This document shows positions 1-64,000 of a DNA stretch of 64,000 bases, piece by piece; the stretch's first letter is position 1, and the number at the start of each line of letters is the position of its first letter. Made by a program: the position numbers and the translations under genes. The notes under the pieces were generated by a model. It saw only the letters and a list, made by a program, of their open reading frames with translations, was not told where the DNA came from and searched no databases. The DNA comes from Scenedesmus sp. PABB004. Lineage: Eukaryota. The stretch is taken from positions 434,001 to 498,000 of the forward strand of contig JABVCE010000013.1 of assembly GCA_014905635.1 (NCBI GenBank), in the 5' to 3' direction.

Positions 1-3000
1 GCCGCCACGGTGCGGCGCCTGGCCATGTACAAGAAGCGCGCCGTGCGCAACAAGAAGGGCAAGATCCTGCACGAGGTGCGCCCGGGACGGGCCCGGGAGA
101 CGGCGCCGCGCATGCCGGCGGCTGCGCCCGCTGCCCGGCGCGCATGCGCGGCGCGCGGCGCCCCGGCGCGCCGGTCAGAGCTCGGCCGGGGTCCGTACCG
201 TCGCACGCGGCTGGCCGCGCGCTGCGCCGCGCCGCCGGAGCCGCGCGCCGGCCGCAGCCGCCGCGCTCGCCGCTGCTCACCCGCGCCGCGCCGCGCCGCG
301 CCGCGCCGCGCCGCGCCGCGCCGCAGGACCTGCAATCCAAGGACCTCCCCACCACGCGCATCCAGCCCGACCGGCGCTGGTTTGGCAACACGCGCGTGAT
401 CGGGCAGAAGCAGCTGCAGGAGTTTCGCGACGAGATGAGCAGCAAGATCAACGACGCCTACACCGTGCTGCTGCGCGAGAAGAAGCTGCCGCTGCAGCTG
501 CTGGAGGACCCGGAGCGCAAGGTGCGCGGCGGCCGGCGCGCGGCGGCGCACGCGCTGCGCGCGCGCGCGGCGGCGCGGCGCGCCCGCCGCGCCGGCGCGC
601 CCGCCGCGCCGGCGCGCCCACGCGGCCGCGCCCGCGCCCGCGCCGCCGCCGCGCAGGTGGGCGGCAAGGCGGCGCGCGTCGACCTGCTCACGACGCAGCC
701 GTTCGCGGAGACGTTTGGCCCGGGGCGCAAGCGCAAGCGCCCGAAGCTCGCCGCCGAGGGCTACGAGGCGCTCGTCGCGTCGGCGGCGGACAAGGAGGAG
801 CGGTTTGAGACCGCGGCCAACGCCGTCGTGCCGGGCGAGTTTGGGGAGTTCAAGGACGCGGTGAGCGCCGCCCTCCCGGAGCCTTCGGCCGCCCGCGCTG
901 CCGCTGCGCCGCTGCGCTGGAGCGCGCGCACCGGCCGCCGCGCCGCGCTCACGCCCCTCGCGCCGGCATGCGTCCCCAGGCCAAGGACGCGATCTTTGAC
1001 AAGGGCCAGTCCAAGCGCATCTGGGGCGAGCTGTACAAGGTGCTGGACTCGTCCGACGTCGTCATCCAGGTGCGGCACTCGCACAGCAGCGCGGCGGCGG
1101 CGGCGGCGGCGGCGCGGCGCCGCGCCGCGCCGCGCCGCGCCGCGCCGCGCCGCGCCGCGCCGCGCCGCGCGGTGGCCGACGCGCCGCGCGCCGCCTGGCG
1201 TCACAGGTGCTGGACGCGCGCGACCCCGAGGGCACGCGCTGCCGCTTCCTGGAGACGCACATCCGCAAGAACGCGCGGCACAAGCACCTGCTGCTCCTGC
1301 TGAACAAGTGTGACCTGGTGAGCGAGCGAGCGCGCCGGCCGAGAGCTCTCCGCGCGCGCCTGCGCCCGCGTGTGTGCGCGTGTGCCGCCTTGCGCTGTGG
1401 CGGCGCGCGCTGCGGCCAGCCAGCCTCGCCAGCGGGGGGAGGTGGAGAGAGGCGGGGATGAATGACACATTGTCCGTACCATCAGAGCGCCCTCGGGCTG
1501 CTGATGAACAAACGTGGAATCTCGTTAGCCTGAGCCTCTCTCTCTCCCCCCATGCTCGTGCGCCTGGCTGCCTGCCTGCGTGTCTGCGACTGCGTGCGCG
1601 CGCGCGCGCGCGCGGCTGAGGTGATGGCAACACACAACTTAAATATACACCGAGCTCTGCACTGAGCGACACACCAACCCTGATCAGCCGCACGCGGCTG
1701 TGCTGTGTGTGCTGCGCGTGTGCTGTGGGCGTGTGTGCTGCTGTGGGCGCGCGCCTCGCGCGCACCCGCCCGCCGCGCGCGCTCACGCGCCGGCCCGCGT
1801 CCGCGCCCGCGCCCGCAGGTGCCCGCGTGGGTGACCAAGCGCTGGCTGCACACGCTCAGCCGCGAGTACCCCACGCTCGCGTTCCACGCGAGCCTCACCA
1901 ACCCCTTTGGCAAGGGCGCGCTGCTCGGCCTGCTGCGCCAGCTCGCGCGCCTGCGCAGCGACAAGCAGGCCATCAGCGTCGGCTTCATCGGCTACCCCAA
2001 CGTCGGCAAGTCGAGCGTCATCAACGCGCTGCGCACGAAAAAGGCACGGCTCCCACCGCGGCCCCCGCCGCACGGCCGCGCCGCGCCGCACGGCCGCGCC
2101 GCCGCCACCTCCCGCGGCCGCGCGGCCGCGCCGCCGCCGTCCCCCGCGCTCACGCGCCGCGCCCGCGCTCGCGTCGCAGGTGTGCAAGACCGCGCCGGTG
2201 CCGGGCGAGACCAAGGTGTGGCAGTACATCACGCTCATGAAGGTGCGGGCATGTGTGCGGGCATGTGTGCGGGCATGTGCGTGGGCGGTACGACACGTCG
2301 CACGCACGCACGCTCTACGCAGCGGCGGCCCCCGCGCGCGCCCCTCGACCGCCCTCCTCACCCTCCCACGCGCCCACGCGCCCACGCACCCACCCTCCCA
2401 CCCACGCACCCACACCCACGCGCCCACACCCGCCCACCCTCACCCCCCCCCCCCACACACACAGCGCATCTTCCTGATCGACTGCCCCGGCGTCGTCTAC
2501 CACCGCACGAGCGACGACGAGACCGACGCGGTGCTCAAGGGCGTCGTGCGCGTGGAGGGGCTCGAGGACGCGACCGGGCACGTCGCGCGCGTGCTGGAGC
2601 GCGTCAAGTCAGAGTACCTGGTGCGCCGCGCGGCTGGCGGGGCGGCGCCGGGGCGGCGCCGGGGCGGCGGGAGCGGCGCCGGGGCGCGCCGCGCGCGTGT
2701 GTGTGCGCGCGTGTGGGCGTCGCGTGTGCGGCGGCGTGACGTGCGGCGGCGCGACGCGGAGCCTATAGAGCAGGGGTCGGTGATGATGATTCAACATCAT
2801 TATAGTAGATAGAGACATCTGACTCGAGCCGTGAAGATGTTTTGTTGTGGGAATCTCACTGAGCCGCCCCTCTTCCTCTTATCCACCGCGCCGCCGGCGC
2901 CGCCATGCCGACCGTTGTGCTGCCGCGCGCGCGTGTGCGCGCTTTGTGTGTCTGGCTGCGCCCTGCCGGCGGGCGCACCGGCCCGGCGGCCCGCGCCCAC

Positions 3001-3635
3001 GCCGCCCGCCGCCGCCGCCCGCGCCGCCCGCGCCGCGCGCGCGGCGCCGCAGCGCCGCGCGTACCGCATCACGTCGTGGGCGGACCACGAGGACTTTTTG
3101 GAGCAGCTCGCGCGCGCGACCGGCAAGCTGCTCAAGGGCGGCGACCCCGACCTCAACACCGCGGCGCGCATCGTGCTCTACGACTGGCAGCGCGGCAAGA
3201 TCCCCTTTTACACGCTGCCGCCCGGCTACACCGACGCGCCGCCCGGCGCGGACGGCGCGGCGGAGCAGGCACAGGTGCAGCAGCTGCAGGCGCAGCCGCA
3301 GGCGCAGCAGGCGCAGCAGGCGCAGCAGCAGGCGCAGGAGCAGCCGGCCGCGATGTTTGCGGCCGCGGTGACCGACGACGACGCGGCGGCGGAGGCCGGC
3401 GCGCGGCCCGAGGACGCGGCCGCCGCGGCGGCGGCGCTGCGCGCGGCGGCGGCCGCCGCGCTGCGCAAGCAGCGCCACGCGGCCATCCCCACCAAGGAGG
3501 GCTACTACCTGCCCGCGGACGAGCAGGGCCAGCCGGGCGCGGAGGCGTCGGACGACGGCGGCGCGTCGGAGGACGTGCTGAGCGGCAGCAGCGACGACGA
3601 CGGCGGCGACGCGAGCAGCAGCGACGGCGCCGACG

Positions 3636-3672
<37 letters not shown>

Positions 3673-3743
3673 CGGCGCGGCCAGCGGCAGCGGCAGCGGC
3701 AGCGGCAGCGACGGCGAGGCGGGGCCGGGGCCCGGCAGCAGCA

Positions 3744-3778
<35 letters not shown>

Positions 3779-13849: not shown

Positions 13850-15263
13850 TCAGCCGCCGCCGCGCTGGCGCAGCGACTCGATGAAGCCGCCCACCGCCGC
13901 CGCCGCGGCGCGGAGCTCGCCCTCGGGCCGCACGAGCGCGAAGCGCACGTGCCCCGCGCCGCCGGGGCCGAACCCGCGCCCCGGCGCGAGCGCGACGCCC
14001 GTGGCGGCGACGAGCTGCTCGCAGAACGCGACGTCGTCCCCGCCGGCCACGCCGTCGGGCAGGCGCGCCCACACGTACATGCACGCGCGCGGCGCGGGCT
14101 GCGCCCAGCCGTGCGCGGCGAGCGCGTCGACGAGCGCGGCGGCGCGGCGCTCCCACACGGCCGCGTAGTCTCGCGTGACACTGGGCGGCAGGCGCAGGCA
14201 GGCGACGCCCATGCGCTGGATGCCAAGGTATTGATTAAAGTCGATCGGCGCCTGCCCAAGGCGGCAGGCAGGCGGGGATGGCGGGGCGGCGGAGGCGAGT
14301 GGGCGTGTCGGGCGGTCAGGCACCGGCGCTCGCCCGCGCGCCTCAAACGCCCCCGCGCGCATGCGCGGCGGCTGCCGCCCCTCCGCGGGCGGGCGGGCGG
14401 GCGGGCGGGCGGGCGGGCGGGCGGGCGGCGCACCTTGACAGCCTCCAGCGCCGCGAGCGCGGGCGCGCAGCCGAGCGCAAAGCCGAGCCGGAAGCCGCCG
14501 AGCTGCCACGACTTGGCAAAGCTAAACAGCTCGACCACGCGCGCCGACGCGCCCGGCAGCGCCAGCGGGGACACCGCGGCGGGCGCGTCAAACACCTGCG
14601 CGGCGGTCGGCGGTCGGCGGCCGTCGGCGCGCCCCGCGCCGCCCCGAGCGCGGCGCGGCGGGCGGCACACGGCCGCGCGCCGACGGCCGGCACGCGGGCG
14701 CCGCTCGGCGACTGGCGGCGCCGCCACGCGTGCGCGCGCGCGCCTGGTGGACGTAGGGGTTGTCGTGAATGAGCAGCAGGTCGTGCTTCTCAGCAAACGC
14801 CAGCACGCGCGCCCACCACGCCTCGTCGGCGACCGCGCCCGTCGGGTTGCACGGCACGTTGAGCAGCAGCGCCGTCGCGGCGGCCGCGTCGCCGGGCGAC
14901 ACCGCGCTGAGGTCGGCGAGCCGCGTCGCCGGGTCGAGCGGCACTAGCGCCGTGCGCAGCCCCGCGACCTTGGCTGCGGGCCGGCGGCGCGGCGCGGCGC
15001 GGCGACGTCAGGGCGGCCGCGCGGCGCGGGGGCCCGCGCCGCGCCCCTCCAGGCAGGCAGGCGTGCAGCCTGAGCCTCACCCGCGCCAAAGTAGCTCGGG
15101 TAGGCCACGTCCGTCAGCAGCAGCGTGTCGCCCGGGTCCGTGACCGCCAGCAGCAGGTGCGCGAGGCCCTCCTGCGCCGCGCGGCGGCGGGCGGCGCGGC
15201 GCGGGCTGGAGCCCCCGCTGCCGCGCGCGCCCCGCGGGCGCGCTGCCACCGCCGGCGCGCTGC

Positions 15264-16239: not shown

Positions 16240-19200
16240 ATGAGCGCGAGCAGCGGCGGCAAGCGCGCCGTCCTCTGGTTCCGCAAGGTGCGCGCGCGCC
16301 CGCGCGCCGGCGGTGTGGCTCATCCGCCGCGCCCGAGCCGCCAGCGGGGGCGCGGCCCGGCGATCGATCGCGGCGGCGGGCGCGGCCCGACGCGCGCGCG
16401 CCCGGCGCCGCGCTCCGCGCCGGTCGCAGGGCCTGCGCCTGCACGACAACCCGGCGCTGCTGGAGGCGTGCGCGGGCGCGTCGGCGGTGTACCCGGTGTT
16501 CATCATCGACCCCCACTTCCTGACGGCCAGCGCCTACAAGTGCGCGGCGGGCCGCGGGCCGGCGGCGGCGCGCGCGCGGCCGCGAACGTGCCGGCGGCGC
16601 GCGCGGCGCGCGGCGCTCTCTCCTGACCGGCCACGCTCGCACCCTGCGCCGCCAGGGTGGGCGTGAACCGCTACAACTTCCTGCTGGAGAGCCTCGCCGA
16701 CCTCGACGCGAGGCGCGCGCGCGCGGCGCGGGGCGGGGCGGGCGGGCCGCGCGCGCGCGCGCGTGCGCCGCGCCTGTGGGCCGCGCGGCGCCAGCGGCCG
16801 CGGACGCGCCTGCGGGCGCCGCTTGCCCGCCTCGCGCCGCGCCGCGCCGCCAACGGCCCGCCGCCCGCCGCCGCCGCAGCCTGCGCGCCAAGGGCTCGCG
16901 GCTGCTGGTGCTGCGGGGCAAGCCCCTGGAGGTGCTGCCGCGCGTGTTCAAGGTCCGCGCCGCGCCGGCAGAGCGCGGCGCCGCTGCCGCGCCCGCGGCC
17001 CCGGCCGCCCACCCTGCTGCACACTCCACCGCTGCGCCCTCGCAGGACTGGGGCGTGACCCAGCTGTGCTTTGAGGTTGACACCGAGCCCTACGCCAAGC
17101 GCCGCGACGCGGACGTGGCCGCCGCGGCCGCCGCGGCGGGCGTCGCGGTGTCCGCGCACGTCAGCCACACCCTCTATGTGCGCCGTGCGCCGCGCGCCGC
17201 GCGCCGGGCGCCCAGGAGGGGGGTGGGAGGCGCCGCCGCCGCTGCTGCGCCCATTCGATCCTCGCCCGCCCTCGGCGTTGACCGCGCCGCGCCGTGCCGC
17301 GCCCGCGCCCGAGCCCGCGCCCGCGCCGCGCCGCGCCGCGCCCGCGCCGCAGGACACCGACGTCCTGCTGCGCGCGGCGGGGGGCAAGGCGCCGCTGACG
17401 ATGCAGGCCTTCACCAAGCTGGTGGACAAGGCGCGGCGCGGCGGGCAGGGGAGGAGGGGCCGACCCCCGGGGGCCCTGGGGCGCAGGACCGCGCTGGGGG
17501 CGGCGCCCCCGCGCGCCTCCCGCCCGCGCGCCCGCCGACGGCGCTGCCCCCGCCCCGCCGCCGCCGCGCCCGCGCAGGTCGGCGACCCGCCGAAGCCGCT
17601 GCCCGCGCCCGGCGCGGTGCCGCCGCCGGGCCCGCTGGGCGCGTGGGGCGACGGCTCGACCGGCGTGCCCAGCCTGGCGGAGGTTGGGTTCACCGAGGCG
17701 CCGACCACGATCTTTAAGGTGCGGCGCTGCTCGCTGCTGCCAGGGGGCGCTGCTGCCGCGCGGCGCCTGCCGCCCGTGCGTCGTGCATCGTGCGGCGCCG
17801 GCAGGCCCGGACGCCGCGCGGCCCGCCCTCCTAGCCCTGCTGCGCGCCGCCGCGCCCCCCCCCCCCCCTCCCACGCACACTCTCACCCTGGCCACCCACC
17901 CCCACGCTCCCGTGCTGCGCGCGCAGGGCGGCGAGTCGGTCGCGCTGTCGCGCCTGGAGGCGAGCCTCGCGGACGCCAAGTGGGTGTGCGGCTTTGAGAA
18001 GCCGGCGACCGACCCTTCCGCCTTCACGCGCCCCGCGACGACCGTGCTGAGCCCGCACCTCAAGTTTGGCTGCCTCTCGCCGCGCCTCTTCCACGCGCGG
18101 CTGGCCGCCGTCTACAAGGCCGCGCGCGGCGCGCACAGCAAGCCGCCCGTGTCGCTCCGCGGGCAGCTGCTCTGGCGCGAGTTCTTCTACACTGTGAGGG
18201 CGCTGCGCGCTGCACGTGCTGCGCGCGCTGTGCCCCGCGCTGCGCGCGCTGTGCCCTGTGCTGCACGCGCTGTGCCGCCCAGCTCCCGCGCGCTGGCGCC
18301 TGCCTCGCTGCGCCTGCCTCGCCGCGCGCGTGGGGCCGCCCGCGCGGCCCGCCGCCCACGCACGCGCGCGCGCGCGCGCCCGCCCGCCGTCACGCAGGTC
18401 GGCAGCGTGACGCCCCACTTCAACGCCATGGCCGGCAACCCCCTCGCCAAGCAGATCCCCTGGGACACCAACCCCGCGCTGCTCGCGGCGTGGCGCGAGG
18501 GCCGCACCGGTGCGCGCCGCCGCGCCGCCGCGCCGCCGCGCCGCCGCGCCGCCGCGGCGCGCAGCGCGCTCGCTTGCCAGCTCGCTGGCTGCCGCTGGCG
18601 CCGGCGCCAGCGGCGCTCCCCCCCCCCCCACAAACACCCTAAACCCTGCCCCCCCCCCTCCTCCAAACCCTCAAAGGCTACCCCTGGATCGATGCGGCGA
18701 TGCGGCAGCTGGCCGAGTGGGGGTGGATGCACCACCTCGCGCGGCACAGCGTCGCGTGCTTCCTCACGCGCGGCGACCTCTTCCTGCACTGGGAGGCGGG
18801 GCAGGCGGTGTTTGAGGAGCTGCTGCTCGACGCGGTGAGGCGGCGACCGCCGCGCCGCCGCGCGGGCGCGCGCCGAGGCTGTCGCGCGGCGCGGCGCGCG
18901 CGGCGTGCTGCGCGCTGCCAGGCCGCCGCGGGGGCGCGCGCCTCGGCTGCTCCCGCCCCTCGTCCGCCACCTCGCCCCCCTGCCTCACCCACACCCTCCT
19001 CCCCCGCTCGCCTCCGTCACTCACCTCCTTCACACTCACCTCCGTCACACTCACCTCTCCCCGCCGCCTTTTTCACCACCTACACACACACACCCGCCCA
19101 CCCACCCCCCTCCCGACTCCCGCCCAGGACCACTTCCTCAACGCCGCCAACTGGCTCTGGCTCTCCTCCTCTGCCTTCTTCGCCCAGTACTATCGCGTCT

Positions 19201-23641: not shown

Positions 23642-26600
23642 TCACTTGATCTCGCTCTGCGCGAGCTTGTTGACTGCGGCCATCTTGCTCGCGGCGACGC
23701 GGAGCTCGTCGAGGTTCTTCTGGATCTCGCCGCGGTCCTCCGCCGGCGCGGCGGCGACGGCCTTCTCCATCTGCACGATCGTCTGCTGGATGCGCGCGAG
23801 CTCCGCGTCGGCGCCCGGCGCGCCGCCCTCGAGGTCGCCCGCGCCGGCCTTGCCCGTGCTGCCCATGCTCGCGCGCGCGAGCTTGATGCTGTTGCGCACG
23901 AGGTTGAGGTCCTGGCTCACGCGGCGGAGGCCGGGCTCGTTGGAGCGGCGCGCGACGCGCGTGACGCTGTCCAGGGCCTTCTCGACCTTCATCTCAGCCA
24001 GCTTGCCCTGTGAGTGAGTGAGGGAGTGCGCGAGTGAGCGAGTGTGTGAGTGTGAGTGAGTGAGCGTGTGAGCGTGTGTGTGAGTGCGTGCGAGCGCGAG
24101 TGTGGAAAGAGGGTGCGAGCGGCGGCGCGCGCGGCGCCGGCCGAGGCCCCCGCGGGCGCGGCGCGGCGCACCTCGACGGCGCCGGCGCTCTGGCGGGCGA
24201 GCGGGTTCTCGTTGAACGTCTGCGCGCCGCGCACGTTGACCATGAGCGCGGTGTTGATCTGGAAGACGTTGTACTTGCGCAGCAGGATGTAGGTGACCAC
24301 CTTGCACGCGTCCTGGATCAGCCACCACACGACTGGGGCAGGCGCGGGCGGCGGCGGCGGCGCGCGGCGCGGCGGCGGCGTGAGGACGGCCCGCGGCGGG
24401 GGCGGGCGCGCGGCGGGGGCGGGCGTGCGGCAGGGGCGGGCGCTGTGGTGCGGCGGCGCTGCGGTGCGGCGGCGGGGCACTCACGGCAGTAGATCCAGAC
24501 CCAGAGGGGCCAGAGCTTGTAGTTGGTGTCGACGGTGAGGCCCTGGACCATGAGGTGGTCGATCTCGCCGGTCTTCCAGATGCACGCGACGAGCGTGGAG
24601 ATGCCGAGCGAGAAGCAGGCCGCGCCGGCGAGGAAGGGCGAGGGGCGGTCGGACCAGAAGAAGCCGTTGTGCGTGCGCGCGCTGAAGAGGGTCAGGAAGT
24701 CGCTGATGGAGACCTTGAGGTACATCATGGTGATGATCTGTGTATGTACAGATGGATGGCGGGCGGTGGTGGATGGTGGGTGGGTGAGTGACGGTGGCGC
24801 CGTCGGGTCGGGCCGCGGGGCGAGCAAGCGGGGCGCGGCGGCGCGGCGGCGCGAAGGGTGCCGGCGCGGACGGCAGGAGGCGCGGCGCGGAGGGCGGCGG
24901 GCGTGCGCGGCGGGCGGACGGGGGGCGCACCTGGGGGTAGGGGATCTCGGGCAGGCCAAACGCCTTGAACACGCTGCCGGGGTTGTGCGAGTCGAGCGCG
25001 GCCCAGAGGAGCAGCAGGGACGAGAGGCACGCGATCGCGGCGAGCACGGAGGAGATGACCCAGAGCACCTTGAGGTTCCACTTCTCGGGCTGGTGGCTCG
25101 GCACGACGTGGTCGTACGCGACGCTGATGAGCGTGCCGTCGTTGAGCACGGTGATGAGGATGAGCATCAGCACGGGCATCTTGAAAAAGTGGGGGAACTC
25201 GGGGTTGGTCGGGTTGAACTTGGACGGGTGCAGCGCGAAGATCGCGATGAAGAAGAACACCACGAGCTGCAGCGTGCACGCGATACTGGGGCGAGGGGAG
25301 GGGAGGGGAGGGGCGGCGGGCGAGCGTGGGTGCGGGCGGGAGTGGGGGCGTGAGCGGGCGCGGGAGCGCGGGCGGCAGCGCGGGCGGGAGCGACGGCGGG
25401 AGCGACGGCGGGAGCAGCGACGCTGCGAGCTGCTGCCGGCGCTGCCAGCCGCTGCCCCCCCCCCTCCCTCGCGCACCGGTAGTTGATGAAGTTCTTCATG
25501 CGCAGGAAGATGCAGCGGCTGATGCGGATCGCCTCGACGATCACGCTCAGGCCCTCCAGCGTGAGCACCATGTCGGCAGCCGCGCGCGCGGCGTCTGCGG
25601 CGGGGCGGGGCGGGCGCGCCGCGTCGGCGCCGGCGGCGCGCGCGGGCGCGCGCGGCGGCTGCAAAGCGAGAGAGAGAGAGAGAGAGCGTGCGCGGCAGCG
25701 GCGGCCCGGCAGCGCGCGCGCGCCCACGCGCACCGGTCGCGCCGGACACGGCGATGCCGACGTCGGCGCGCTTGAGCGCGGGCGCGTCGTTCACGCCGTC
25801 GCCGGTCATGCCGACCGCAAAGCCCTCCTGGCGCAGCGCCTCGACGATGAGGTACTTGTGCTCCGGGTACACCTGCGCGGCGTGCAGCAGCGGGCGGGCG
25901 GGCGCGGGGCGGGGCGGGCGCAGGGCGGGCGCGGGGCGGGGCGCGTGAGGGTCGGATCAGAGCCTGGCGCGGGCGCGCGCGGGCGGGCGGGGCGCGGCGC
26001 GCGGGCGCGGCGGCGCAGGCGCGGGCGCGGCGCGCGGGCGCAGGCGCGCAGGCGCGCAGGCGCAGCTGCGCGCGCCTGCGCGAAGCCGTCGGCGGCGAGG
26101 ATCATCTTGCCGTACTTCTTGCCCAGGTCCTTGGGGATCTTGCCGTCCGCGTCCATCGTCGGCAGGCCGGCCGCGTCCTGGATGTTGGTGCCCAGGCCCA
26201 GCGTGCGCGCCGTCTCCTTGGCAATCACGCCGTGGTCGCCTGCGGGACGCGCCGCGCGCGCCGGCGGGGTCGGCCGCCGCGCGCCCCGCCGCCGCTGCGC
26301 CGCGCCGCGCCGCTCTCCCTCCGTCCCCGCTCCTCCCTCTCTCCTCCTTCTCCCTCCCTCCGCGCCGGCACGCCGGCGCGCCGCCGCGCCGCCGCCGCCG
26401 CGGCGCAGCCCATCCCCCGCGCACCGGTGATCATCTTGACGTCCACGCCGTACTCCATCGCGCGCTCGATCGTGACCTTGGTGTCGGGGCGGGGCGGGTC
26501 GAGGAAGGTCAGGATGCCGAGCATGGTCCACTTGCCGTCCTCGTTGGTGCGCGCGACCGCGAGCGAGCGGATGCCGCGGCGGCCGAGGTCCATGACCTGC

Positions 26601-32137: not shown

Positions 32138-32172
<35 letters not shown>

Positions 32173-34617: not shown

Positions 34618-34682
34618 CCGGCGCGCCATCGTGGCGCGTGCAGGCGTCGTCGTCGCCTGCACGCGCCACGATGGCGCGCCGG
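34618..34682. repeat. Perfect 29-bp inverted repeat with 7-nt loop
   Basis: CCGGCGCGCCATCGTGGCGCGTGCAGGCG 34618-34646 / loop TCGTCGT / CGCCTGCACGCGCCACGATGGCGCGCCGG 34654-34682. Confidence 0.95.
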
Positions 34683-42467: not shown

Positions 42468-42499
<32 letters not shown>

Positions 42500-43501: not shown

Positions 43502-46500
43502 TCACAGCGCGCGCACCGCGCGCGGCTCCTTCCACGCCGGCCCTGCCGCCGCCGACTCGGCCAGCTCGCGCCCAAACACGGCCGGCGCCCAGCTGCCGTG
43601 CAGGCCGGCGGGCAGGAAGTGGGGCAGGCGGATCGTCGCGACCGGCCCCGCCGCGAGGCGCGCCGCGTCGAGGATGACGAGCTCGCCCCGGCCGCTCGCG
43701 GCGTCGTGCACCGTGGCGAGCACCCAGCCGTCGTCCTCGGCGCGCCCGCCGGGGTGCGGCACGAACAGCGGCTCCATGACGAGCCGCCGCGGCCCCGCGT
43801 CCCACAGGTCGACCGCGACGCCCGCCTCAAACAGCGGCCGGCCCTGCGCGCCGCGCGGACGCGGGCGGGTCGGGGCGCGCGCCGCGCGCCGTGGGTCGGT
43901 GCGCGCCGCGCGCCGCGAGCCGCGGGCTGCAGGCGCGCCGGCTGCCCCCCCCCCCCCCCCACCTGCGTGCCGGCCAGGGGGTCTGGCAGCGTCAGCTTCA
44001 TCACGCACTGCGTCGGGCCCTGCGCCGGCGGCACGGGCGGGCGCGGCGCGGCGCGGCGGGCGCGGCGGGCGCGGCGCGGCGGGCGCGGCGGGCGCGCTCA
44101 GCGCGGCTGGCGCGATGACGCGGCGGCGGCGCGGCGTGCTGTGCGGCGCGGCGCGCTGCGTGCGCGCACCCAGTGCAGCTCGTCGTCGACGCGGTCCGCG
44201 CAGCAGTAGATGTGGCGGTGCGGCGCGCCGGTGGCGCGCGGCGCGACGCTCGGGAACTCGACGCAGCGGCGCGCGAGGCGCGTGTTGGAGGCGAGCCGCC
44301 CCGCGGCCGCGCCGCCGCCGCCGTCGCCGGCGGGCACGGGCGGGGGGAGCTCAAACACGAGCCGCCGCAGCTGGCTGCGCGCGCCGCCGGTGTAGTAGCG
44401 GGGCGAGAGGTTGTGCTGGTTGTTCTCAAACGCCACGCTGTCCCACGCGACGGTGTCGAGCACGACCTGCTGCCCCCGCCCGGGCGCGGAGGGCGGCGCC
44501 TAGCGGGCGCGCGGCGCGGCGGCGGCGGCGGGCGGGGCTGGGTCGAGGGGCGAGCTGCGCGCACGCAGCCCGCGCGCAGGCTGCGCTTGCCGGAAGAGGT
44601 GCCTGAGCAGGCCGGCTGGGCGAGGGCGCGCGGGCGCCGCGCACCTGGAAGGCGTTGACGTGGTGGAAGGTGAACATCGGCGGCGCGTCGGCGACGCACG
44701 GCGCGGTGCCCGCTGCGCGCGCGCGTGCGAGCGGGCGGGCGCGGCACGCGTGAGCGCGGCGGCGGCGGCGGGAGGGGGCGGCGCGGCGCGGCGCGGGTGG
44801 CGGCGGCGGCGCGCACCCGCGGCGCCGCGTGCGCGCGGGACGAGGTGCACGCGCGTCGGCTGGGAGTCGTCATACACGAGGCACTCGGCGATCGAGCAGC
44901 GGCTGGTCAAATACTCTGCCGAATGGCGGCGGCGCAGCGGCGGCGGCGCAGCGTGTGGGCGGCAGGGGCGCGGCGGCAGCGGCGCGGCGGCAGCGGCGCG
45001 GCGGCAGCGGCGCGGCAGGAGAGCAGCGCCAGCGGTGCGCGGCGGCGCACCGGTGAGGAACTTGGCGGGCGCAAAGTTGACCGGGCCCACGACCACGACT
45101 GCGGCGGCGGCGCGCGCGGCGGCCCGCGTCGGACGGCGTGGCGCCGCGGGCGCCACGCGCGCGGCGGCGCGGGCGCGGGCGCGCGTGCGCTTGGGCGCGG
45201 GGCGCGGGGCGCGGCGCGGCGCGGCGCGGCGCTCGCCGTAGTAGTCCTGCGTGACGGCGATGTCGTGGATCATCGCCACGCTCACGCCCGGCAGCCGGTA
45301 CGGCTGCGGCGCCACGGCGAGCTGCCCGTCCTCTGCGGCCGCGCGGGTGGCGGCGGCGTGCGCGGCGGGGCGCGCGCGCCGGCGCCGGCCGCGGCGGGCC
45401 TGCTGTGGCGCGCGGGCGCGGCGCGCGCGGCGCGGGGCGCGGGGCGCGCACCGCTGAACTCGTAAAACTGGAGCTCGGCGTCGCCGAGGCCGGTGTTGAA
45501 GCTGAAGCCAACCCACGTGGCGCCGCCGCCGCCGGCCGCCGGCGGCTGCCCCGCCGGCTGCTGCCCCGCCGGCTGCTGCCCCGCCGGCTGGCCGCCCTCG
45601 GCGTCCGCCCCGGGCGGCGGGGGCAGGATGCGGTAGTGAGCGGCGAGCACGGGCGTTGCCAGCTGGCCGCCCAGCGTGGTCTCGCCGAGCGTGTCGAGGC
45701 TGGCGGGGTCGAGCTCGTGCGGCGGCCCGCTCTGCGGCCGCGGCGGCGGCGGCGGCAAACACGTCAGCGAGAGGGGCTAATCGGAGCGCACGCGAGGCCG
45801 GGCGCGCCGGGGCCGGCGGCGGGCCGCCCGTGCGGCGCGGGCCGCGGCGCGGGCGCCGCACCTCGTACAGCGCCAGCAGGCGGCCGCCCCAGTGCAGCAC
45901 GCCTGCGGCGGCGCCGGCGGCGGCGGCGCCGGCGGCGGCGCGAGCTCGCGCGCGCGCTCGGCTGGCGGCGCTGCGCGGCGCCGGCGGCGCGGCCGCCGCG
46001 CGCGGCGCACCCGTGTTGGCCACGTTTTTGAGCTTGAAGTCAAAGGGGTTGAACAGCAGGCTGCCGTCCGCGGCGCCGCGCGTGAACGCGGTGCGGTGCA
46101 CGGGGCGCCCCGCGGCCTGGCGGCGGCGGGCACAGCGGCGGCGGCGGCGGCCGGCGTCGGCGGCGCGCGCTCTGCGGGCGCGGCGCGGCGGCGACGCGGG
46201 TGCGGGCCGCCAGCTCAGGCGCTGCGGCGCGGCCGCGCCTGCTCGTCGAGGAAGCCCTGCGTGCGCACGAAGCGGTTCTTGAACCACACGCGCCCGCCGT
46301 CAAACGCAAAGCTCAGCACCATGCCGTCGCCGTCAAACGTGTGCCGCCGGTACCGCTCGTTCGCGACCTGCGCGCGCCGCAGGTCGGGACGGCGTGCGCA
46401 GTCGGCGGGGGCCCAGCGCGGCGGCGCGCGCGCCGGGGGCGCCCTGCTGCCGGCGCCGCGCGCGCCTGCAGGCCCGGGCCGTTGCGGAAGTACGTGCCGT

Positions 46501-47174: not shown

Positions 47175-47494
47175 GGCGCTGCTTGCGCTGCCCCGGGGTG
47201 GCGTGTGGGCGCGGCGCCGCGCCGGGCGAGCAGCGCCGCTGCGGTGGCGCCGGCGGTGCGCTGCTGCGGCCGGCGGCGTGGGCTTGGGGAAGGCACAAGC
47301 GCTGCTTGACTGCGGAGGACGCGGAAGGGCAGCACGCCGATGCGACACGGCGCCGCGCTCGAACGACGCCCCGGCGCCTGGTCATTCGCCTGCGCCTGTC
47401 GTCCGCACGAACATCACTATATTACACCGCTCTCTTTGGCCTCCCACCAGTCTTTCCGCTCGTTCGTTGGTTGCGCGCGCGCGGCGTGCGCGCG

Positions 47495-49245: not shown

Positions 49246-50877
49246 ATGTCGCCCGTGGACTTCCTGGAGCAGCTGCAGGCGGCGCAGCCCGACCTGGCGC
49301 CCGACCTGGGCGAGCTGGGCGGGCTGTACCAGCGCAAGCTGTGGCACCAGCTCACGCTCAAGCTTGAGGCGTGCTTCGCGCAGCCCGCGTTCAACCGCGG
49401 CGACCTGCCGCTGCAGCTCTACGAGGGCTTCATCAAGGACTTTGGGCACAAGATCAACCTGCTCAAGCTCGCGCAGTTTGCGGTGCACGTGGCGAAGCAC
49501 ATCGCCGACCCCGCGGCGGCGCTCGCGTTCCTCGACGGCGTCGCGGCGCGCCTGCGCGAGCAGAAGCTCCCGCGCAGCGAGCAGCCGCTCCTCTTCCTCA
49601 GCATGCACGTCGCGCAGCAGCGCCTCGAGGCCGGCGACGCGGCGGCGGCAAAGGGCCTCGTCGAGGCGGGCGCGGCGGAGCTCGACGCGCTCGACGACGT
49701 CGACCCGAGCGTCTCGGCCGCGGTGCACTACGTGAGCAGCCTGTACCACAAGCTCAAGCAGGACTACGCCGCGTTCTACCGCTCGACGATGATGTACCTC
49801 GCGTTCGTCTCCTCCGACGGCCTCGCCGCCGACTTCAAGCTCCCGCTCGCCGTCGACGTCTCGCTCGCCGCGCTGCTCGGCGAGGGGATCTACAACTTTG
49901 CAGCGCTGCTCATGCACCCCATCATCAAGGCGCGCGCCACGCACGCGAGTGCACACGTGCACGCGCGCGGCGCCGCCCGAGCAGCAGCGGCAGCTGCAGC
50001 GCCGAGCGCCGCGCGGCGCGCCGAGCAGCAGCGGCTGCCCGCGGCCGCCGGCCGGCGCTCGCGCGCGAGCCTCACCGCCGCGCGGCGCCGCCGTGCCGCG
50101 CTGCGCCGCCGCGCGCAGGTGCTGGACGGCAGCCCCTACGCATGGCTGGCGGAGATGCTGGCGTGCTTCAACCACGGCGACCTGCACGCGTACGATGCGC
50201 TCTGCGCCAAGCATGCCGCCGTTCTCAACGCGCAGCCCGCGCTGGTCGAGAACGAGCGGCGCCTGCGGGAAAAGGCGCGCGCGCGCGCGCGCACGGTGCT
50301 CGGAGCGCCACGGCGCGCGGCGGGCGCGGGCGCGCGCGCGGGCGCGGCGGGGCCGCCGCGCCGTGCGCCCACCCCGGCCCGCGCCGCGCCTGCGCATCAC
50401 CCGCGCAGGTGACGATCAGCTGCCTGATCAACCAGATCAGCGACCTGCCGCCCGAGCAGCGCCGCATCCCTCTGTCCGACATCGCGGCGCGCACCAAGCT
50501 GAGCGTGGACGGCGTCGAGTTCCTGCTCATGAAGGCCCTCGCGCTGCACCTCATCGAGGGCAGCATCGACCAGGTGGCGCGCGGCGGCGCGCGGAGCGCG
50601 GGGGCGGCCGCGGCGGCCACGGTGGCGGCAGGGGCGCGGCAGCGCGGCAGCGAGTTGCGTGGAGGGCAGCCGGGCGCGGGCGGCGGCCCGACGCGCGCCC
50701 GCGCGCGCGTCGCAGGTCGCGCAGGAGGTGACGGTCAGCTGGGTCGCGAGCCGCGTGCTCACGACGGCGCAGGTGCAGGGGCTGAAGGAGCGCCTCGACG
50801 GCTGGATCTCCAAGGTCAACGCCATCAGCAACACGCTGGAGCAGGAGAGCATCGGCGTCGCGCTCGAGGTCGTGTGA
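49246..50877 (+). CDS. RPN9: 26S proteasome regulatory subunit RPN9 (PSMD13), 4 exons
   Basis: LYQRKLWHQLT, KINLLKL, AALLGEGIYNFAALLMHPII, VEFLLMKALALHLIEGSIDQV; exons 49246-49929, 50119-50274, 50409-50573, 50716-50877. Confidence 0.96.
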
Positions 50878-51095
50878 GCCGCCGGCGGCGGCGCGCGCTG
50901 GGCGCGGACGGGCGGGCGGGCGGGCGGGCGCACAGCAGCGCGGCGGCGCTGCTGCGGGGCCGGGGCGGACGGGGGCCGGGCGGCGCGGGCGCAGCTGCGA
51001 AGCTGCCGACGGCGGTCGTTGGCCCGGGGCGCGGGCGTTGGGGCCCTGTAGATTACGCCCCCTCCCCCCTCCCCGAGCACTCGCGCACGCCGCGG

Positions 51096-52879: not shown

Positions 52880-53505
52880 TTTCCCGCGCAGCGGCCGGCC
52901 GACCCGCAGGCGCGGTGGCGCGGTGACACGCTGGTCCCAGGAGGGAGCCGGGCCTGTTTGCCGCCTCGTGCAGCGGCCTGCCGGACCGTGCGACCCCCAG
53001 GCGGCGCGGCGCGGGCGGGCGGCGGCGGTCTGCGCTGCTGTCGGCGCTGCTGCGGCGCGCTCGCTCTCCCCTCGCCCAGAATCAGTTGTTATCAGGTCGT
53101 GCGCACGCCTGGAGGCCCACAAAACCATGGCGCTGTGCAGGCGGCGCGCCCCGCAGAACCGCCGCCGCTCGCGCTGGCGTGCCGGCGACGCCCGGTGACC
53201 ATGGCTCTGGCCAGAGCGGCGCCGCCACGGCGTGCCCCGGAGCGGTGATGATGGTGCAGCAGCAGTGAATGAAATCAACGCAGCAACAGAGTAGTCACGT
53301 CAAAGCAATAGGGGGGCACGCACCGCTGCGCGCGAGTGGCCGCCGCCCGCCAGCCAAGCCCCGGCCCGCCCGGTAAACCCCGCGTGCCCGCTTGGTCAGT
53401 GCAGCCCACAGCCATTCGTTGAGGCCGTCTCCCGTGCGCCCACGCTGCATACTACATTGAACGGTTGTCCAACCCTCGCGGCCGCCGCGGCCGACGCCGC
53501 GCAGC

Positions 53506-56500
53506 TCAACGCTGCTGCCCCTCCGCCGCCGCCGCGAGCTCCTGCGCCAGCTGCAGCAGCGCGCGCTGCGCGGGGTATTCGTCGTAGGACCAGCGGCAGG
53601 GCCCGCCAAACTCCTCCGGCACCAGGTCGGGCCCGAGGCACGCCGCCAGCTCGGCGGCCGCCTCGGCGGGGCTCTCGCAGACCTGGCGCGTGCGGGCGCG
53701 CGGGCGCGGGAGCGGGCACGGGCGGGTGTGCGTCGGTGGCAACGGCAGGCGGCGGGCGGCGGGCGGGCAGGCGCGCGGCGGCGCGTGGCCGCACCTGGAC
53801 CTTGGCGCGCGTGCTGGGCGAGAGGTGGGGGCGGACCATGCGGTAGAGCATGTTGAACCACGCGGGCGCGCCGACGACGAGGCAGCGCGCGAGGCGCTCC
53901 GGCCACGCGTGGCAGACCTCGCCGAGCGCGCGCGCGCCGACCTGGCCCTCGCCGACCGCCTGGCCGAGGCGAATGCCTGCCATGTCGGTGACCATGACCA
54001 GGCGGCCCCCGGGGTGCGGGTGCGGCGCGAGGCGGTCAAACAGCACCGCCCACACAAAGCCGGCGTACGCGACCAGGTCAGCCGGCGACAGTCCCGCGGC
54101 CGCGAGCGACCTCGACATGCCCACCAGGCTCGCCATCTGCGGCGGCGCGGCGGCGGCGGCGGCGCGGCGATGATGATGCACGGTGGGTGCGGTCGCGCCC
54201 GTGGCGCGGCGGGCGCGCGGGCGCGCGGGCTCGCAGCAGCGCGCTGCGGTGCGGTGCGTGCCTTGACGAGCAGGACGACGTGGCCCTGCGGTGTGACGGC
54301 GAGCGGGCGCATGTGCAGGTGGCGCTGGAACCAGGCAAAGTGCGGCACCGGCGCGTCCAGGGCCGCGTGGCGGCCGTAGCGCAGCCGCCACGCGTGAACG
54401 ATCGCCGCGACCTTGCGCCGCTCCTCGAGGTTGGGCCTGCGCAGCGAGGCCGGCGCGGCGCGGCACGGCGCGGTGAGCGCGTCGGCCGCTGGGGCGGCGC
54501 GCGCGGCGGCGGCGGCGGCGGCGGCGGCGCGCCGCGCCTCGCGATCCAGATGCGGTGCCGCCAGTCCGGCGTCATCCACTCGGGCTCCGGACTCGACACG
54601 AGCACGGCGTGCGCGCTGCTGGCCGAGGCGTCGCACGGCGCGAGCTGCTCCAGCAGCCCCCTCGCGGCGGCGGCGTCGAGCACGAGCGAGCCCTGGCGCG
54701 ACACTGCGGCGGCGGGGCGTGGCGGGGCGCGGCGGGGCGCGGCGCGTCGGCACGGCAGCTCGGCGCCGCGCGGCGGGGCGCGGGCGCGTCCGCGCGCACA
54801 CGCACCGAGAGGGCTGTGCGCCTCCGCGGCCGCGCGCATGGCGCGGCAGGCGGCGATCTGCTCCTCGAGCAGCCCGAGCGCCTCGCGCACAAAGCCGCCG
54901 CCGAGCAGGCGCAGGCGCAGGCCCTCGGGCGCGACGAGCGGCGACGCCGCGCCGCCGGCGCCGCACGGCGCAGCGCCGCCCGCCGCGCTGCCGGGGCGCG
55001 AGCTCGGCTGCGCCGGCGCGGCCGCGCCGGCGTGCGCCGGCCTGCGGCGCTGCAGCAGCGCGCGCGGCCAGCGCGGCCGGGCGGCCGCGAGCATGCAGAT
55101 CGCGTGCAGTGCGGCGGCCGCCAGCACGAGCGGCGGCCCCGCCCGCGTCTGCAGCAGCAGCAGCGCGAGGCAGGACAGCGCCGCGGCCGCCAGCCCCAGC
55201 GCGGACAGCACCTGCAGCTCCGCCGGCGCCAGCGGGCCCCTCGCGTGGCCGCCAAGCACCAGCACGCCCGGCGCATCGCCGCCGACGCCGCCGCCCGCCG
55301 TGGCGGGGCCCCCAGCGTCGGGCGCCGCGCCGCGCGGCAGGGGCGCCGCCTCGCTGCCGCCCGGCAGCAGCTGCACGTGCAGCACGGCAAACACCTCGGC
55401 GCTGAACTCCAGCGGCTGCTCCTCGTCCTCCTCCTCGTCGTCCTCCCCGTGCACGCTGCAGACAATGCGGCTGCTGAACACGCGGCTGCCGCTGCCCCCG
55501 CTGGTGCTACGCCGGCAGGCGCGTGTGTCGCCGGCCAGCTCGCTGGCAGCGCTGCTGCGCTGCGACAGCTGCTGCTGCAGCACCGCGCTGCTGCGCCGCG
55601 ACAGCTGCTGCTCCAGCGCCGCCATGGACGGCGCCGCCGCTCGGTCGCTGCCGGCGCCGTCGCCGGCGCGGGCGGGCGCCGGCGCCGGCTCGCCGCCGCC
55701 GGCGATGCCGGGCGGTGGCGCGCTGACCTCGCTGGCGGGGCGCGCGAGCCCGGGCCGGCGCGCGCCTCCTCGGTGGCTGCAGCCGCGCGCATGCTCTCTG
55801 GGTTGCTCTTGCTGCGCGGCGGCAGCCGCACCTTGACGGCGGCGGCGGCGGCGCCGTCGGCGGCGGCGGCGGCGGCGGTGCCGTCGGCAGGCTCCGGCGC
55901 GTCGGAGGGCGCGTCCGAGGCCGGCGCGGGCGCCGCCGGCAGCGCAAAGCCCAGATGCTGCACTGCCGGCTCCGCCGCCTCCACCGGCGGCGCCTTGGGC
56001 GCGGTCACGCGCCGGATGAGGCTCCGCGCCGAGTGCCTCGCCGACGAAAGCGTCACGAGCTGGCGCGCCCCGAAGCTGCCGCGCTCGCCGCCGTCCTCGC
56101 TGCGCGGCGGCCGCGCCGCGGCGATCGCCTGCGCCGCACTGGGCTGCGCGGCGACGCCCGCACCCGGAGCGCGCGCCGCTGCGCCGCCAGCATCGGCGCT
56201 GCCGGCTGCGTCCTGCGAGCCGGGCGGGTGGCCCGTGAAGCTGTGGAAGGCCACCTCGCTGTCCTGGTCGTCCTCGTCGCCCTCCTCCCCGTGCACGCTG
56301 TCAAGGCGCAGCAGGTTGGGCGCGCCGCCGGGCGCCAGCTGCCGCTCGTCGCCGGCGTCCGCCTCCGCAGGCCCCTCCTCCTCCTCCTGCTCCTCCAGCT
56401 GCTCCTCCTCGTGCTGCTCGTCCGACTCCTCCTGCTCCTCCTCCCCCTCGTCTGCCTGCTGCCCCACGTGCTCCGCCATCCACGGCTCCATCGCCGCGTC

Positions 56501-58434: not shown

Positions 58435-59111
58435 CGCGCGCGCGCCGACCGCGAGCAGCGCCGGCGCTGCGCTCGCAGCGCTGGCCGACTAGCACCGCGC
58501 CGCGCCCGGCGCTGCGCCGGCTTCTGGCGCTGCGGGAGGCGCGCCAGGTGCGCCACAAGGTCCCCGCGGCGGCGGCATGCCGGGCCGCGCCGCGCCGGCG
58601 CAGTGGCAGCGGCGCTCGGCAGCGGCGCTCGGCAGCGACGGCGCCGCTGGCGCAGCTGCGTCCGGCGCTGCCCTGGGCGCAGGCCGCGACCGACACCCGC
58701 GCTGGCAGGGCCGAGCGCGCGCGCAAACTGACTCCGGTGTGACTGCTGGGCCGGTGTGCCGCGGCCAACTGTCGCCTCGCACGCTGCGCGGCCTGCCGCA
58801 GCGTCGGTGATCGAGGTCCCGGCAGTGCTGCCGACTGGCAGCAGCGTCTGGCCCAGCTTTCGCCAACAGCGGCAGCCGAGCGGGCGTCGCTGTAGGGCTC
58901 TGTCTCGCCTCCAGGGAGCCGCCACAGGGCGCGCTGACGGCCCAGTCTTGCGGCCGGCGGTCTCGCCGTCCTCTCGGACGCCCAGCAGCAGGGGCTTGGC
59001 CGCGCCGCGCTGCCGCCGCCGCGCCGCCGTGCTGCCATCGCAGCGGCGCCGGAGCGGCGGCCTACCCGGTGATGGCCGGGGCCCGCCCGCCACGCGCCTG
59101 AGGCAGCAGAT

Positions 59112-62100: not shown

Positions 62101-62715
62101 CCCGGACGCCCCGCCCTCGGGCGGCGCCGCCGCAGGTCGGCTTTGTGCGCTCCGCGCCGACGCTGGCAGCGGGGGAGATGTTTGACGCGGCCGCGGCGGT
62201 GCAGGTCACGCACACGGTCGTGCGGCTCGTCGCCGGCGCCGCGGCGTGCCTGCAGCACCTCACGCTGCCGGAGCTGCTCGCGGCGGCGGGGCACCCCGCC
62301 GCGGCGGGGCAGCAGCTGCAGGTGTGCATTCGCTACGCGCAGGTGCGGGACCCGTTCGTCCTGCTCCTGCTGTCGGACGCGACCGCGCTGCTGCTGCACG
62401 GCGACGCGGCCGCGCGTCGCCTCGAGCTGCTGCCGGCCGCGCTGCCGGCGCTCGCGGCGGCGGGCTGGGCGGAGCCGGGGGCGGCCGCGACCGCGGCCTG
62501 CCTCTACACCGACACCAGCGGCTGGCTCGCGGCCGCGGCGGGGCTCGCGGCCCGCCGCCGGGCGGGCAGGCCGCGGCGTCGGTGGGCGCGGCCGACGCGG
62601 CCGCGGCCGCAGAGGCAGAGGCCGAGGCCGAGGCCGCGACCGCCGAGCGCGCGGCGGCGGCGCTGCCGCTGCCCAGCATGTACGCGGCCGTGCCGGGGCT
62701 GGGGCCGCAGCAGCA

Positions 62716-62765
<50 letters not shown>

Positions 62766-64000
62766 ACGTGAAGATGGAGGAGGCAGCCCCGGCGCCTGCA
62801 GCGGCAGGCGGCGAGGCGGCGGACGCGGTCGCCGCGGCCGCGGGCGACGCGGGCGCGCCGCCGCCCAGCGGGGACGAGGTGACGGTGATTGCCGTGCCGG
62901 CGGCGGACGCCCCCGGCGACGCGGCGGAGGGCGTGGAGGGTGTGGACGAGGCCATGGCGCTGGCGGGCGCCGTGGGCGACGCGGCCGAGGCGGACGCCGC
63001 CGCCGCGGCCGGCGGCGCCGGCGCCGCGGACGCGCCCGTGCCGGAGGCGCGGGCGGCGAAGCAGGAGCCGGCGGAGGAGGCGCAGCAGGAGCAGGCGGGC
63101 GAGGCGGCGCCCGCGGGCCGCCGCGGCCGCTCACGTTTTGCGCGGTGTGCCGCGCCGACGGCGCGCTGCAGATCTATGAGCTGCCGGGCATGGCGCTGGT
63201 GTTTGAGGACGCCGAGGCGATGCTGGGGCGCGAGGTGGGCCGGGGCGGCGGGGATGCTGAGCTGCGCGCCCGCTGACCGCGGCCGCGGAGGCACCGCCCG
63301 TGGCGGACCTGCCCGTGCGCGCCCCGGCCCGCCCGCTGACCACCACGGGCGCTCCACGCGCCGTGCACGCGCAGACGCTCAGCCCGCACCGCCCGCCCGG
63401 CGTGGGCGACGACGACGACGGCGACGACGACGCGCCGCCGAGCCGCGTCGGCGAGATGCTGCTCGAGTGCTTTGCCGCGCCCAGCGGCGCCGCGCTCGGC
63501 GTGCCTGCCGCGGCCGCGCCGCTGCTGCTCATGCTGCGGGACAGCGGGGCGCTGCTGGTTTACAAGGCGCGCCGCTCGCTCGCGGGGCTGGGCGGCCGCC
63601 GCGGCGCGCGCGAGGGCCTCGCCCCGACGCTCGCCGCCCGCGCGCCGCCGGCGCAGGCCTTCAAGCCGACCACGCCCGGGCGCTCGCTCGGCTTCCGGCG
63701 GCAGCCACTGGACGCCGCGCTGCTGCCGCACGCGAGCCCCGCGCCGCCGCCCGCGCCGGCGGGCGCCGCGGGGCGGGGCCCCGCCGCGCCGGGCATGCCC
63801 GCCGCGGCGTCGCCGCCGGCGCGGCTCGTGCGCTTCGACGGCCTCGCCACGCCGCGCCTCGCGGCGCCGCTCGCGCCCGGCGGCGCCGGCGGCGCCGCCG
63901 CGCCGGCGCTGTGGTACTGCGGCGTGTTTGTCTGCGGCCCGCGGCCGGCCTGGCTCGTCGCGGCGCGCGGCGGGCTGGTCGCGCAGCCGGTGGACCCCGA
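59112..64000 (+). CDS. CPSF160: Cleavage and polyadenylation specificity factor subunit 1 (CPSF160), 3'-truncated
   Basis: VYRE|LVPPSAVTCC, NLVVVRGTRLEVY, RDSLVLAM|RDAKVAVVEWD, SLHSFEG, VRDLAFLHGYTEPVLLLLHE, FFLGSALGDSLLVRF, VVDSLQGLGPM; three apparent frame breaks in low-complexity parts. Confidence 0.93.

Follow-up and report, generated by a model that had tools for sequence, protein, structure and literature searches.

Introns that begin with GC in place of GT (GC-AG introns) are unusually frequent in a 64,000-nucleotide stretch of nuclear DNA from Scenedesmus sp. PABB004 (assembly GCA_014905635.1, contig JABVCE010000013.1, positions 434,001 to 498,000 of the forward strand), referred to here as the window and numbered from its first letter. 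Fifteen of the 96 introns counted have a GC donor and all fifteen end in AG; the share is 16%, or 13% if only the 12 verified by comparison with homologues are taken, and the other 84% of donors keep T at the second intron position (+2). At the 1% generally expected of GC-AG introns, 12 or more among 93 would arise with a probability of 2e-10. These are probably ordinary introns of the major (U2-type) spliceosome, the donors of which have changed from GT to GC under pressure towards high G+C. A previous inspection of the letters, the sequence-only reading, had counted about 15 GC-AG introns in roughly 110 and had considered this frequency very high. Its fifteen donors all have G-C at the base and on the strand that it gave, and its proportion is close to ours, with a total that is here smaller (81 GT and 15 GC donors). 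A further donor that it thought possible, at 8497, lacks support, as the letters there read CC and the coding model places a plus-strand gene at this point. Its premise, that GC-AG introns make up about 1% in most eukaryotes, is right, with known exceptions in exactly such genomes.

The introns were called with a codon-usage model trained on Pfam-anchored coding stretches, which segmented the window into 119 coding segments. For each gap, frame-preserving GT or GC donors and AG acceptors were enumerated, and each candidate was scored by its coding potential together with donor and acceptor position weight matrices (PWMs) trained on GT introns with +2 masked. By this score, 12 of the sites in the sequence-only reading ranked top, with margins of 12-45 bits over the GT alternative; the site at 26075 has no GT alternative in this scoring. 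The automated census covered 95 gaps, six gaps of less than 60 nt having been put aside, and classed 55 donors as GT and 17 as GC with confidence, leaving 23 cases ambiguous, 20 of them of GT type. The 17 GC calls comprise 12 noted sites, the refuted call at 50577, a join of 54837 to 54437, which is a mis-join across the intron with its donor at 54537, and three further candidates, at 5394 (+), 57509 (-) and 58306 (-), which lie in genes lacking usable homologues and were called from coding potential and motif. The final count of 81 GT and 15 GC donors was reached by adding the junctions found through homology and removing one wrong call; among the 81 GT donors are the 20 ambiguous census calls of GT type.

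The two strands of the window together contain 75 copies of the motif AGGCGCG. Because motif scoring can mislead in such DNA, each site was tested against homologues; the motif alone proves nothing, and the evidence is its position relative to homology. Motif-only scoring, which wrongly chose the GC at 50577 over the GT at 50574 and mis-joined 54837 to 54437, was not used alone. For the carotenoid oxygenase, the photolyase and the H+-ATPase genes of relatives, a junction search was made in which any donor dinucleotide was permitted and the candidates were scored against homologues. In poorly conserved stretches this unconstrained search returns meaningless best donors (CT, CC, TC and others), as it did for the photolyase at 16534 and 17792, for the carotenoid oxygenase at the E9-E10 and E10-E11 junctions, and for 13 junctions in the relatives.

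Protein continuity with relatives or solved structures fixes 12 of the 15 GC donors: three in a plasma-membrane H+-ATPase, three in a carotenoid oxygenase, two in RPN9, two in a photolyase and one each in GNL2 and an aminotransferase. The sequence-only reading had named protein continuity as its ground for all 15 sites; for those at 54261, 54537 and 63567 the case rests on coding potential and motif. In RPN9/PSMD13, two of the three introns are of the GC-AG type, as had been claimed. They lie on the plus strand at 49930..50118 and 50275..50408, and both have the donor AAG|GCGCGC (the upright stroke marks the exon-intron boundary). Four homologues align without a gap over each junction, with 23, 24, 21 and 19 of 28 flanking residues identical at the first (P0125, P0127, P0128 and P0139, respectively) and 27-28 of 28 identical in all four at the second. 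The third intron, 50574..50715 (+; CAG|GTGGCG), provides a GT-AG control. The GC donor at 50577, preferred by motif, would add a residue lacking in three of the four homologues, whereas the GT at 50574 is gap-free in all four, which shows that the homology test can tell GT from GC only three bases apart.

The three GC-AG introns of the H+-ATPase gene, all on the minus strand, are 25873..26075 (CAG|GCGCGC), 26597..26778 (AAG|GCGCGG) and 27283..27484 (CAG|GCGCGC). At 26075, 27 of 28 flanking residues match the homologues P0005 and P0012 without a gap, and at 26778 all 28 match P0005, again gap-free. At 27484 the homologues read NKMVIQ|DDC, which both fixes the GC donor and selects the acceptor at 27283. 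An acceptor at 27316 was rejected, as it would insert 11 residues absent from P0005 and P0012. A model with 16 introns gives a protein of 1037 residues, with which P0005 and P0007 can be aligned over the full length. These two proteins are coded without interruption on contigs of approximately 4.7 kb and would appear to derive from RNA.

In the carotenoid oxygenase gene (RPE65 family; minus strand), the introns 46117..46238 (CAG|GCGCGG) and 46368..46465 (CAG|GCGCGC) both emerge as the unique best junction when the donor is unconstrained, with no GT candidate for either. The third, 45099..45236, has the donor ACG|GCGAGC and is the only one of the fifteen without an AG exon end. Its removal gives DYY|VVVVGPVNF, which matches DYYVVVVGPVDF and DYYVVIAGPVNF in homologues. 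The 48-nt exon next to it (45051-45098, -) was missed by the coding model and revealed by the homologues. A 41-nt exon of the same gene, at 45862-45902 (-), was likewise missed and found only via homologues.

The photolyase/cryptochrome introns, on the plus strand, are 16713..16879 (GAG|GCGCGC) and 17431..17577 (AAG|GCGCGG). Scored against 10 homologues with any donor permitted, the first junction is the unique best, at 895 against 647 for the best GT; the second is also the unique best against 10 homologues, and no in-frame GT candidate occurs within the range searched. Thus, four GC donors (46465, 46238, 16713 and 17431) are unique optima in a search that is free to choose any dinucleotide. 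In the gene for the GTPase GNL2/Nog2, the intron 2044..2179 (+; AAG|GCACGG at its donor and CGCAG| at its acceptor) separates an exon that ends at residue 334 of human GNL2, or 339 of yeast Nog2, from one that begins at residue 335 or 340; this junction is also the top candidate by coding potential and PWM. The class I/II aminotransferase intron, 14596..14743 (-; CAG|GCGCGC), joins exons that abut at residues 217|218 of the structure 2x5d_A and fall within one residue of each other in 2dou_A, at 203|204. A GT nine bases upstream would remove the conserved residues VHQ.

The other three are probable GC-AG introns, for which coding potential and motif speak. Two lie in a CRAL-TRIO gene on the minus strand: 54137..54261 (AAG|GCACGC), which has a margin of 21 bits over the best GT by coding potential and the donor and acceptor PWMs, and 54437..54537 (GAG|GCGCGG), where an open exon rich in G+C at third codon positions, ...WRHRIWIA(R)PNLEERRK, reads across the junction and where the coding model assigned the wrong strand. 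The third, in a CPSF1-like gene, is 63567..63656 (+; AAG|GCGCGC); its 90 nt keep the reading frame and contain no stop codon, and precisely at 63570-63659 the coding score sinks to about zero. This stretch could instead be translated or retained. A Pfam search of the five exons that flank these three junctions, with E values up to 10, returned only the known CRAL_TRIO match, and a PDB search with the CPSF1-like exon returned only a marginal match (E = 0.17) distant from the junction.

Could the GC donors be artefacts, either of wrongly placed intron boundaries or of T-to-C assembly errors at +2? There are grounds for asking: three of the 15 sites are without homology support, GC dinucleotides and the AGGCGCG motif are very common here, motif scoring went wrong twice, with a false GC at 50577 and a mis-join at 54837, and six unexplained frame switches in the window could be assembly indels. 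Nevertheless, protein continuity places 12 sites to the exact base, in several cases with 27-28 of 28 flanking residues identical, and most sites have no in-frame GT nearby. Moreover, errors would not strike position +2 of a good donor context fifteen times. We therefore regard an artefact as very improbable. A run search with the DNA of the window returned two freshwater-metagenome DNA runs (0.09 and 0.06 of words) and no RNA run. Compared with positions 44001-64000, metagenome contigs from these two runs, which may be the source sample itself, list no difference at +2; their cover is thin, of short low-depth contigs and partial matches in GC-rich repeats, and gives no evidence either way. 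The one contig over a GC donor (49697-49959, with one difference at 49836) extends 28 letters past 49931, under the 31-letter rule.

Apart from +2, the GC donors follow the U2-type donor consensus of the organism. Twelve of the 15 read GCGCG, two read GCACG (2044 and 54261) and one reads GCGAG (45236); the claim that nearly all are AG|GCGCG or AG|GCACG is thus borne out for 14, with the donor at 45236 as the exception. The consensus of the 81 GT donors is (C/A)(A/C)G|GTG(C/A)G(C/G), with G at -1 in 90%, G at +3 in 96%, C at +4 in 74% and A in 19%, G at +5 in 96% and C at +6 in 67%, in agreement with the earlier description of these donors as mostly GTGCGC. The intron side of the GC donors is the same, with G at +3 in 87%, C at +4 in 93% and G at +5 in 100%. 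When scored by the GT-trained donor PWM with +2 masked, the GC sites reach 3.9-10.5 bits, within the range of true GT donors. The two classes of intron also agree in length (median 138 nt for GC and 137 nt for GT) and in their CGCAG acceptors. U12-type signals, either a donor (A/G)TATCC or a branch site TCCTT(A/G)A(C/T), were found in 0 of 15 GC introns and 0 of 75 GT introns; these introns are not U12-type. Nor are they copies of one spreading or introner-like family: when 90 introns were compared all against all, a single pair, both of them GT introns, matched weakly (73% over 109 nt).

The two classes differ on the exon side. A is found at -2 in 93% of GC donors and 41% of GT donors (p = 1.5e-4), and the exon ends in AG (-2A, -1G) at 14 of 15 GC donors against 30 of 81 GT donors (Fisher p = 8e-5), which supports the sequence-only reading in what it said on the exon side. 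Put the other way, GC makes up 14 of the 44 donors that follow AG (32%) and one of the 52 that follow other exon ends (2%).

It had been suggested that recognition of the donor itself is altered, in that a changed U1 5' end, U6 ACAGAGA region or protein factor reads G(Y)GCG directly and T or C at +2 hardly matters. What speaks for this is the pairing with U1: both donor classes mismatch canonical U1 at +4, where C stands in 74% of GT and 93% of GC donors (the lack of a match here had been correctly noted), and GC donors form on average only about 5.3 pairs with the canonical U1 5' end (4.5 Watson-Crick and 0.9 wobble), compared with 6.4 for GT donors. The GC donors of animals and plants are said to require more U1 pairs than that. 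However, position +2 is not free, as T is kept in 84% of donors despite introns that are 86-90% G+C, and GC occurs in only one of 52 donors that lack an AG exon end. In addition, the donors of relatives with GT at these sites are already of the form GTG(A/G/C)G, and the U1 5' end is canonical in the two most GC-AG-rich algae for which the published survey cited below gives it (PMC3033335). Altered recognition of this sort is unlikely in our view. The published precedents argue that a variant U1 or U6 would be unneeded; in this alga, too, U1 and U6 would then be canonical.

A related possibility, which we likewise hold to be doubtful, is that the lineage is part-way through a shift in its donor code, with recognition moving from U1 pairing at +2 to +4 towards the exon-end AG and the G at +5. 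Such a shift may act via a changed U1, a changed U5 or U6, or their proteins. It would be compatible with the poor U1 complementarity of GT and GC donors alike and with the split of 32% versus 2% by exon context. In that case, T and C at +2 would be interchangeable after AG, and GC donors would in time predominate, as they do in Emiliania.

The history of these positions can be followed in relatives of lower G+C content. A metagenome scan with an exon of the H+-ATPase yielded at least 48 loci, the closest of which, among the matches listed, are 70-72% identical; several are intron-bearing green-algal ATPase genes with 56-68% G+C. For all three GC introns of the H+-ATPase there are lower-GC relatives, of 57-68% G+C, with GT at the same codon. 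After NKMVIQ (27484 in the window), the loci L001, L002, L045 and L039 read CAG|GTGGGC or CAG|GTGAGG; after RVNWK (26778), L001 and L041 read AAG|GTGAGC; and after DGFAQ (26075), L001 reads GTGAGC directly behind the Q codon (CAG|GTGAGC). The introns are therefore old, and it is the C at +2 that arose secondarily, in the very G+C-rich lineage; the odd consensus at +3 and +4 predates the GC donors because the GT donors of the relatives already read GTG(A/G/C)G. Over this gene in seven relatives, the unconstrained junction search resolved 36 GT donors and one GC donor. The latter, at approximately 1506 in L044 (64% G+C), reads caag|GCGAGC, at a position unlike those of the GC introns in the window.

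Four metagenome gene calls (P0001-P0004) are 90-92% identical to a single exon of the ATPase and are annotated as whole short proteins, one of them under the name of an ABC glycerol-3-phosphate permease. Here prokaryotic gene finders have mistaken eukaryotic exons for genes, on contigs that reach 85 kb, and the calls suggest that close relatives of the alga are present in public metagenomes; the 90-92% identical contigs that they imply are not among the metagenome loci listed.

The presence of GT in the lower-GC relatives at the same positions points to drift from T to C at +2 rather than to a redesigned recognition. In the explanation we favour, that of ordinary U2-type introns under G+C pressure, nearly every unconstrained site in the host would be driven to G or C by G+C-biased mutation or biased gene conversion, either of which may be the driver. 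Few A/T letters would then be left for selection to defend, the T at +2 among them, and +2 would be the one position of the GT dinucleotide at which the spliceosome tolerates C. Where the site is strong, with an exon ending in AG and G at +1, +3 and +5, the change from T to C would be nearly neutral and could become fixed, whereas donors with weaker exon ends would remain GT. About a third of donors in the AG context are now GC because, on this account, the change at strong sites costs next to nothing.

Several points weigh against this explanation. The compensation for C at +2 is only partial, and the GC donors here are weaker than the near-perfect ones of animals and plants; with U1 pairing this low, the machinery may have adapted to some extent. 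Ascertainment may account for part of the AG bias, as both our PWM and the sequence-only reading favour AG|GC, and of the candidates at 5394, 57509 and 58306 two do not follow an AG exon end; if real, the three would make GC-AG introns more frequent still and the AG rule less strict. In the H+-ATPase gene, GC accounts for three of 16 donors in the window and one of 37 in the relatives, a difference that is not significant alone (Fisher p = 0.08), and the relatives' total leaves out 13 junctions as non-canonical artefacts, five without a candidate and two that were skipped. That splicing in RNA takes place at exactly these sites is something we infer from the proteins. Finally, in the published survey, G+C content alone is weakly correlated with the GC-AG share outside the top species, and Micromonas RCC299 has 64% G+C yet 2.7% GC-AG introns (Iwata & Gotoh, PMC3033335).

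A different role is conceivable for the same donors, in that they might be real but deliberately weak, marking introns that are retained or alternatively spliced for regulation; this would be compatible with an origin under G+C pressure. The poorer pairing of GC than of GT donors with canonical U1 would fit, as would the in-frame, stop-free intron at 63567-63656, and the Emiliania authors suggested that GC donors and frequent intron retention are connected (PMC4028052). Against this, the GC donors occur in housekeeping genes (H+-ATPase, proteasome lid subunit, GNL2), where retention would insert junk into conserved cores, and the length and acceptor signals do not set GC introns apart from GT introns. 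A regulatory role is accordingly quite improbable.

Abundant GC-AG introns in high-GC algae have been in print since 2011, and the window is a further case. In their survey, Iwata and Gotoh described extraordinarily abundant GC-AG introns in species of high G+C content, with shares of 39.6% in Aureococcus anophagefferens, 22.2% in Micromonas pusilla CCMP1545 and 7.7% in Chlorella sp., in contrast to 1.3% for classical GC-AG introns over 61 species (PMC3033335). They ascribed the abundance to G+C content, called its origin an enigma, and gave the putative U1 5' end in Aureococcus and Micromonas pusilla as canonical, AUACUUACCUG (PMC3033335). The window shares with these algae a very high G+C content, a GC-AG share far above 1-2%, the AG acceptor and equal lengths of GT and GC introns; on the evidence of one 64-kb window, both its G+C content and its GC-AG share are those of a GC-AG-rich, high-G+C algal genome. 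It differs in coming from a chlorophycean (Sphaeropleales-like) alga, in being more extreme in composition (79% G+C, compared with 69.5% for the highest in that survey) and in that our share of approximately 13-16% comes from a single 64-kb window whereas theirs are genome-wide. The GT at orthologous positions and the dependence on AG exon ends, which are evident here, have no counterpart in the relevant passages of that paper (PMC3033335).

A 2024 preprint on pelagophytes gives GC-AG shares of approximately 14-17% in Aureococcus strains and approximately 14% in Pelagomonas, compared with 0.32% in the lower-GC Aureoumbra (bioRxiv 10.1101/2024.10.30.620910). The share is nearly the same as ours, and the contrast between high-GC and lower-GC members and the explanation by G+C content are also alike. 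However, pelagophytes are stramenopiles and their shares were taken from annotation, whereas the present case is a green alga with 12 junctions individually checked against homologues. In Emiliania huxleyi, 56% of 241 manually mapped junctions were GC-AG, some of them verified by reverse transcription PCR (Feldmesser et al. 2014, PMC4028052). This is also a GC-rich alga in which GC is a routine donor of the major spliceosome with a canonical AG acceptor, but GC is its majority donor, whereas here GT accounts for 84% and GC is almost confined to exons that end in AG; its junctions are backed by RNA evidence (PMC4028052), and ours are placed by protein continuity at 12 of the 15 sites.

As in the classical GC-AG introns of animals and land plants, the introns here are probably U2-type, and the C at +2 may be offset, in part, by a stronger consensus elsewhere, above all at the exon end. 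The classical donors approach AG|GCAAGT, whereas those of the window, following the local GTGCGC, read AG|GCGCGC and make about five pairs with canonical U1. A literature search on GC-AG introns with Chlamydomonas or alga gave no report on Sphaeropleales among the matches listed, although supplementary tables may hold per-species values, and the relevant passages of a plant survey (PMC6310983) contain nothing specific on the matter.

The finding opens no new kind of mechanism. It adds a further independent green-algal case, and probably the most GC-rich one, in which GC pressure would have eroded the donor T. Since the change from GT to GC can be read at orthologous positions and the dependence on AG is sharp (14/44 versus 1/52), the lineage lends itself, as a natural experiment, to asking how much information the major spliceosome requires in a 5' splice site. 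There is also a practical side, in that gene finders insisting on GT would break about one in seven introns here, including those of the H+-ATPase, the proteasome lid subunit and GNL2.

The G+C content of the window is 75-81% throughout and approximately 79% overall, in nuclear DNA with intron-rich eukaryotic genes. In the Pfam-anchored coding stretches it is 75%, 51% and 96% at codon positions 1, 2 and 3, respectively, and in introns (86% for 75 GT introns and 90% for the 15 GC introns) it exceeds the value for the window. If the window is typical of the genome, few eukaryotes are known to us with nuclear DNA as rich in G+C. The best named relatives of three window proteins come from Monoraphidium, Raphidocelis (Chlorophyceae, Sphaeropleales) and Tetradesmus/Scenedesmus, and by these protein matches the host is placed as a chlorophycean green alga near the Sphaeropleales.

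Gene identities were taken from Pfam matches to stop-to-stop reading frames. They comprise a GNL2/NGP1 GTPase, an MFS transporter, the class I/II aminotransferase, the photolyase/cryptochrome, the P-type ATPase (plasma-membrane H+-ATPase), a UBC-UBA E2 enzyme, ankyrin and LRR proteins, the carotenoid oxygenase (RPE65 family), RPN9/PSMD13, the CRAL-TRIO protein and a CPSF1/DDB1-like propeller protein. Rfam found no family in the whole window, which thus holds no small nuclear RNA gene, and no tRNA at the gathering score. ARAGORN called three tRNAs, at 35996-36090 (-), 42476-42551 (-) and 45195-45289 (+), one of them of undetermined type; the last, of 95 nt, overlies the opposite-strand GC-AG intron 45099-45236. 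All three are probably false positives of GC-rich DNA.

A repeat search showed a 697-bp unit in three tandem copies at 29333-31417, with 98-100% identity. The triplication begins within the first coding segment of the H+-ATPase (29200-29361, -) and extends upstream; it may reflect either a triplication of the 5' exon and promoter or an error of assembly. Tandem Repeats Finder, with a longest period of 500, reported no tandem repeat over 29000-35500. Lastly, the six frame switches occur, according to the coding model, across gaps of 2-56 nt within otherwise continuous coding regions, at 8482/8485, 8712/8742, 61823/61844, 62549/62567 and 63118/63130 on the plus strand and at 55790/55733 on the minus strand; assembly indels, coding sequence of low complexity and very short introns are all conceivable causes.

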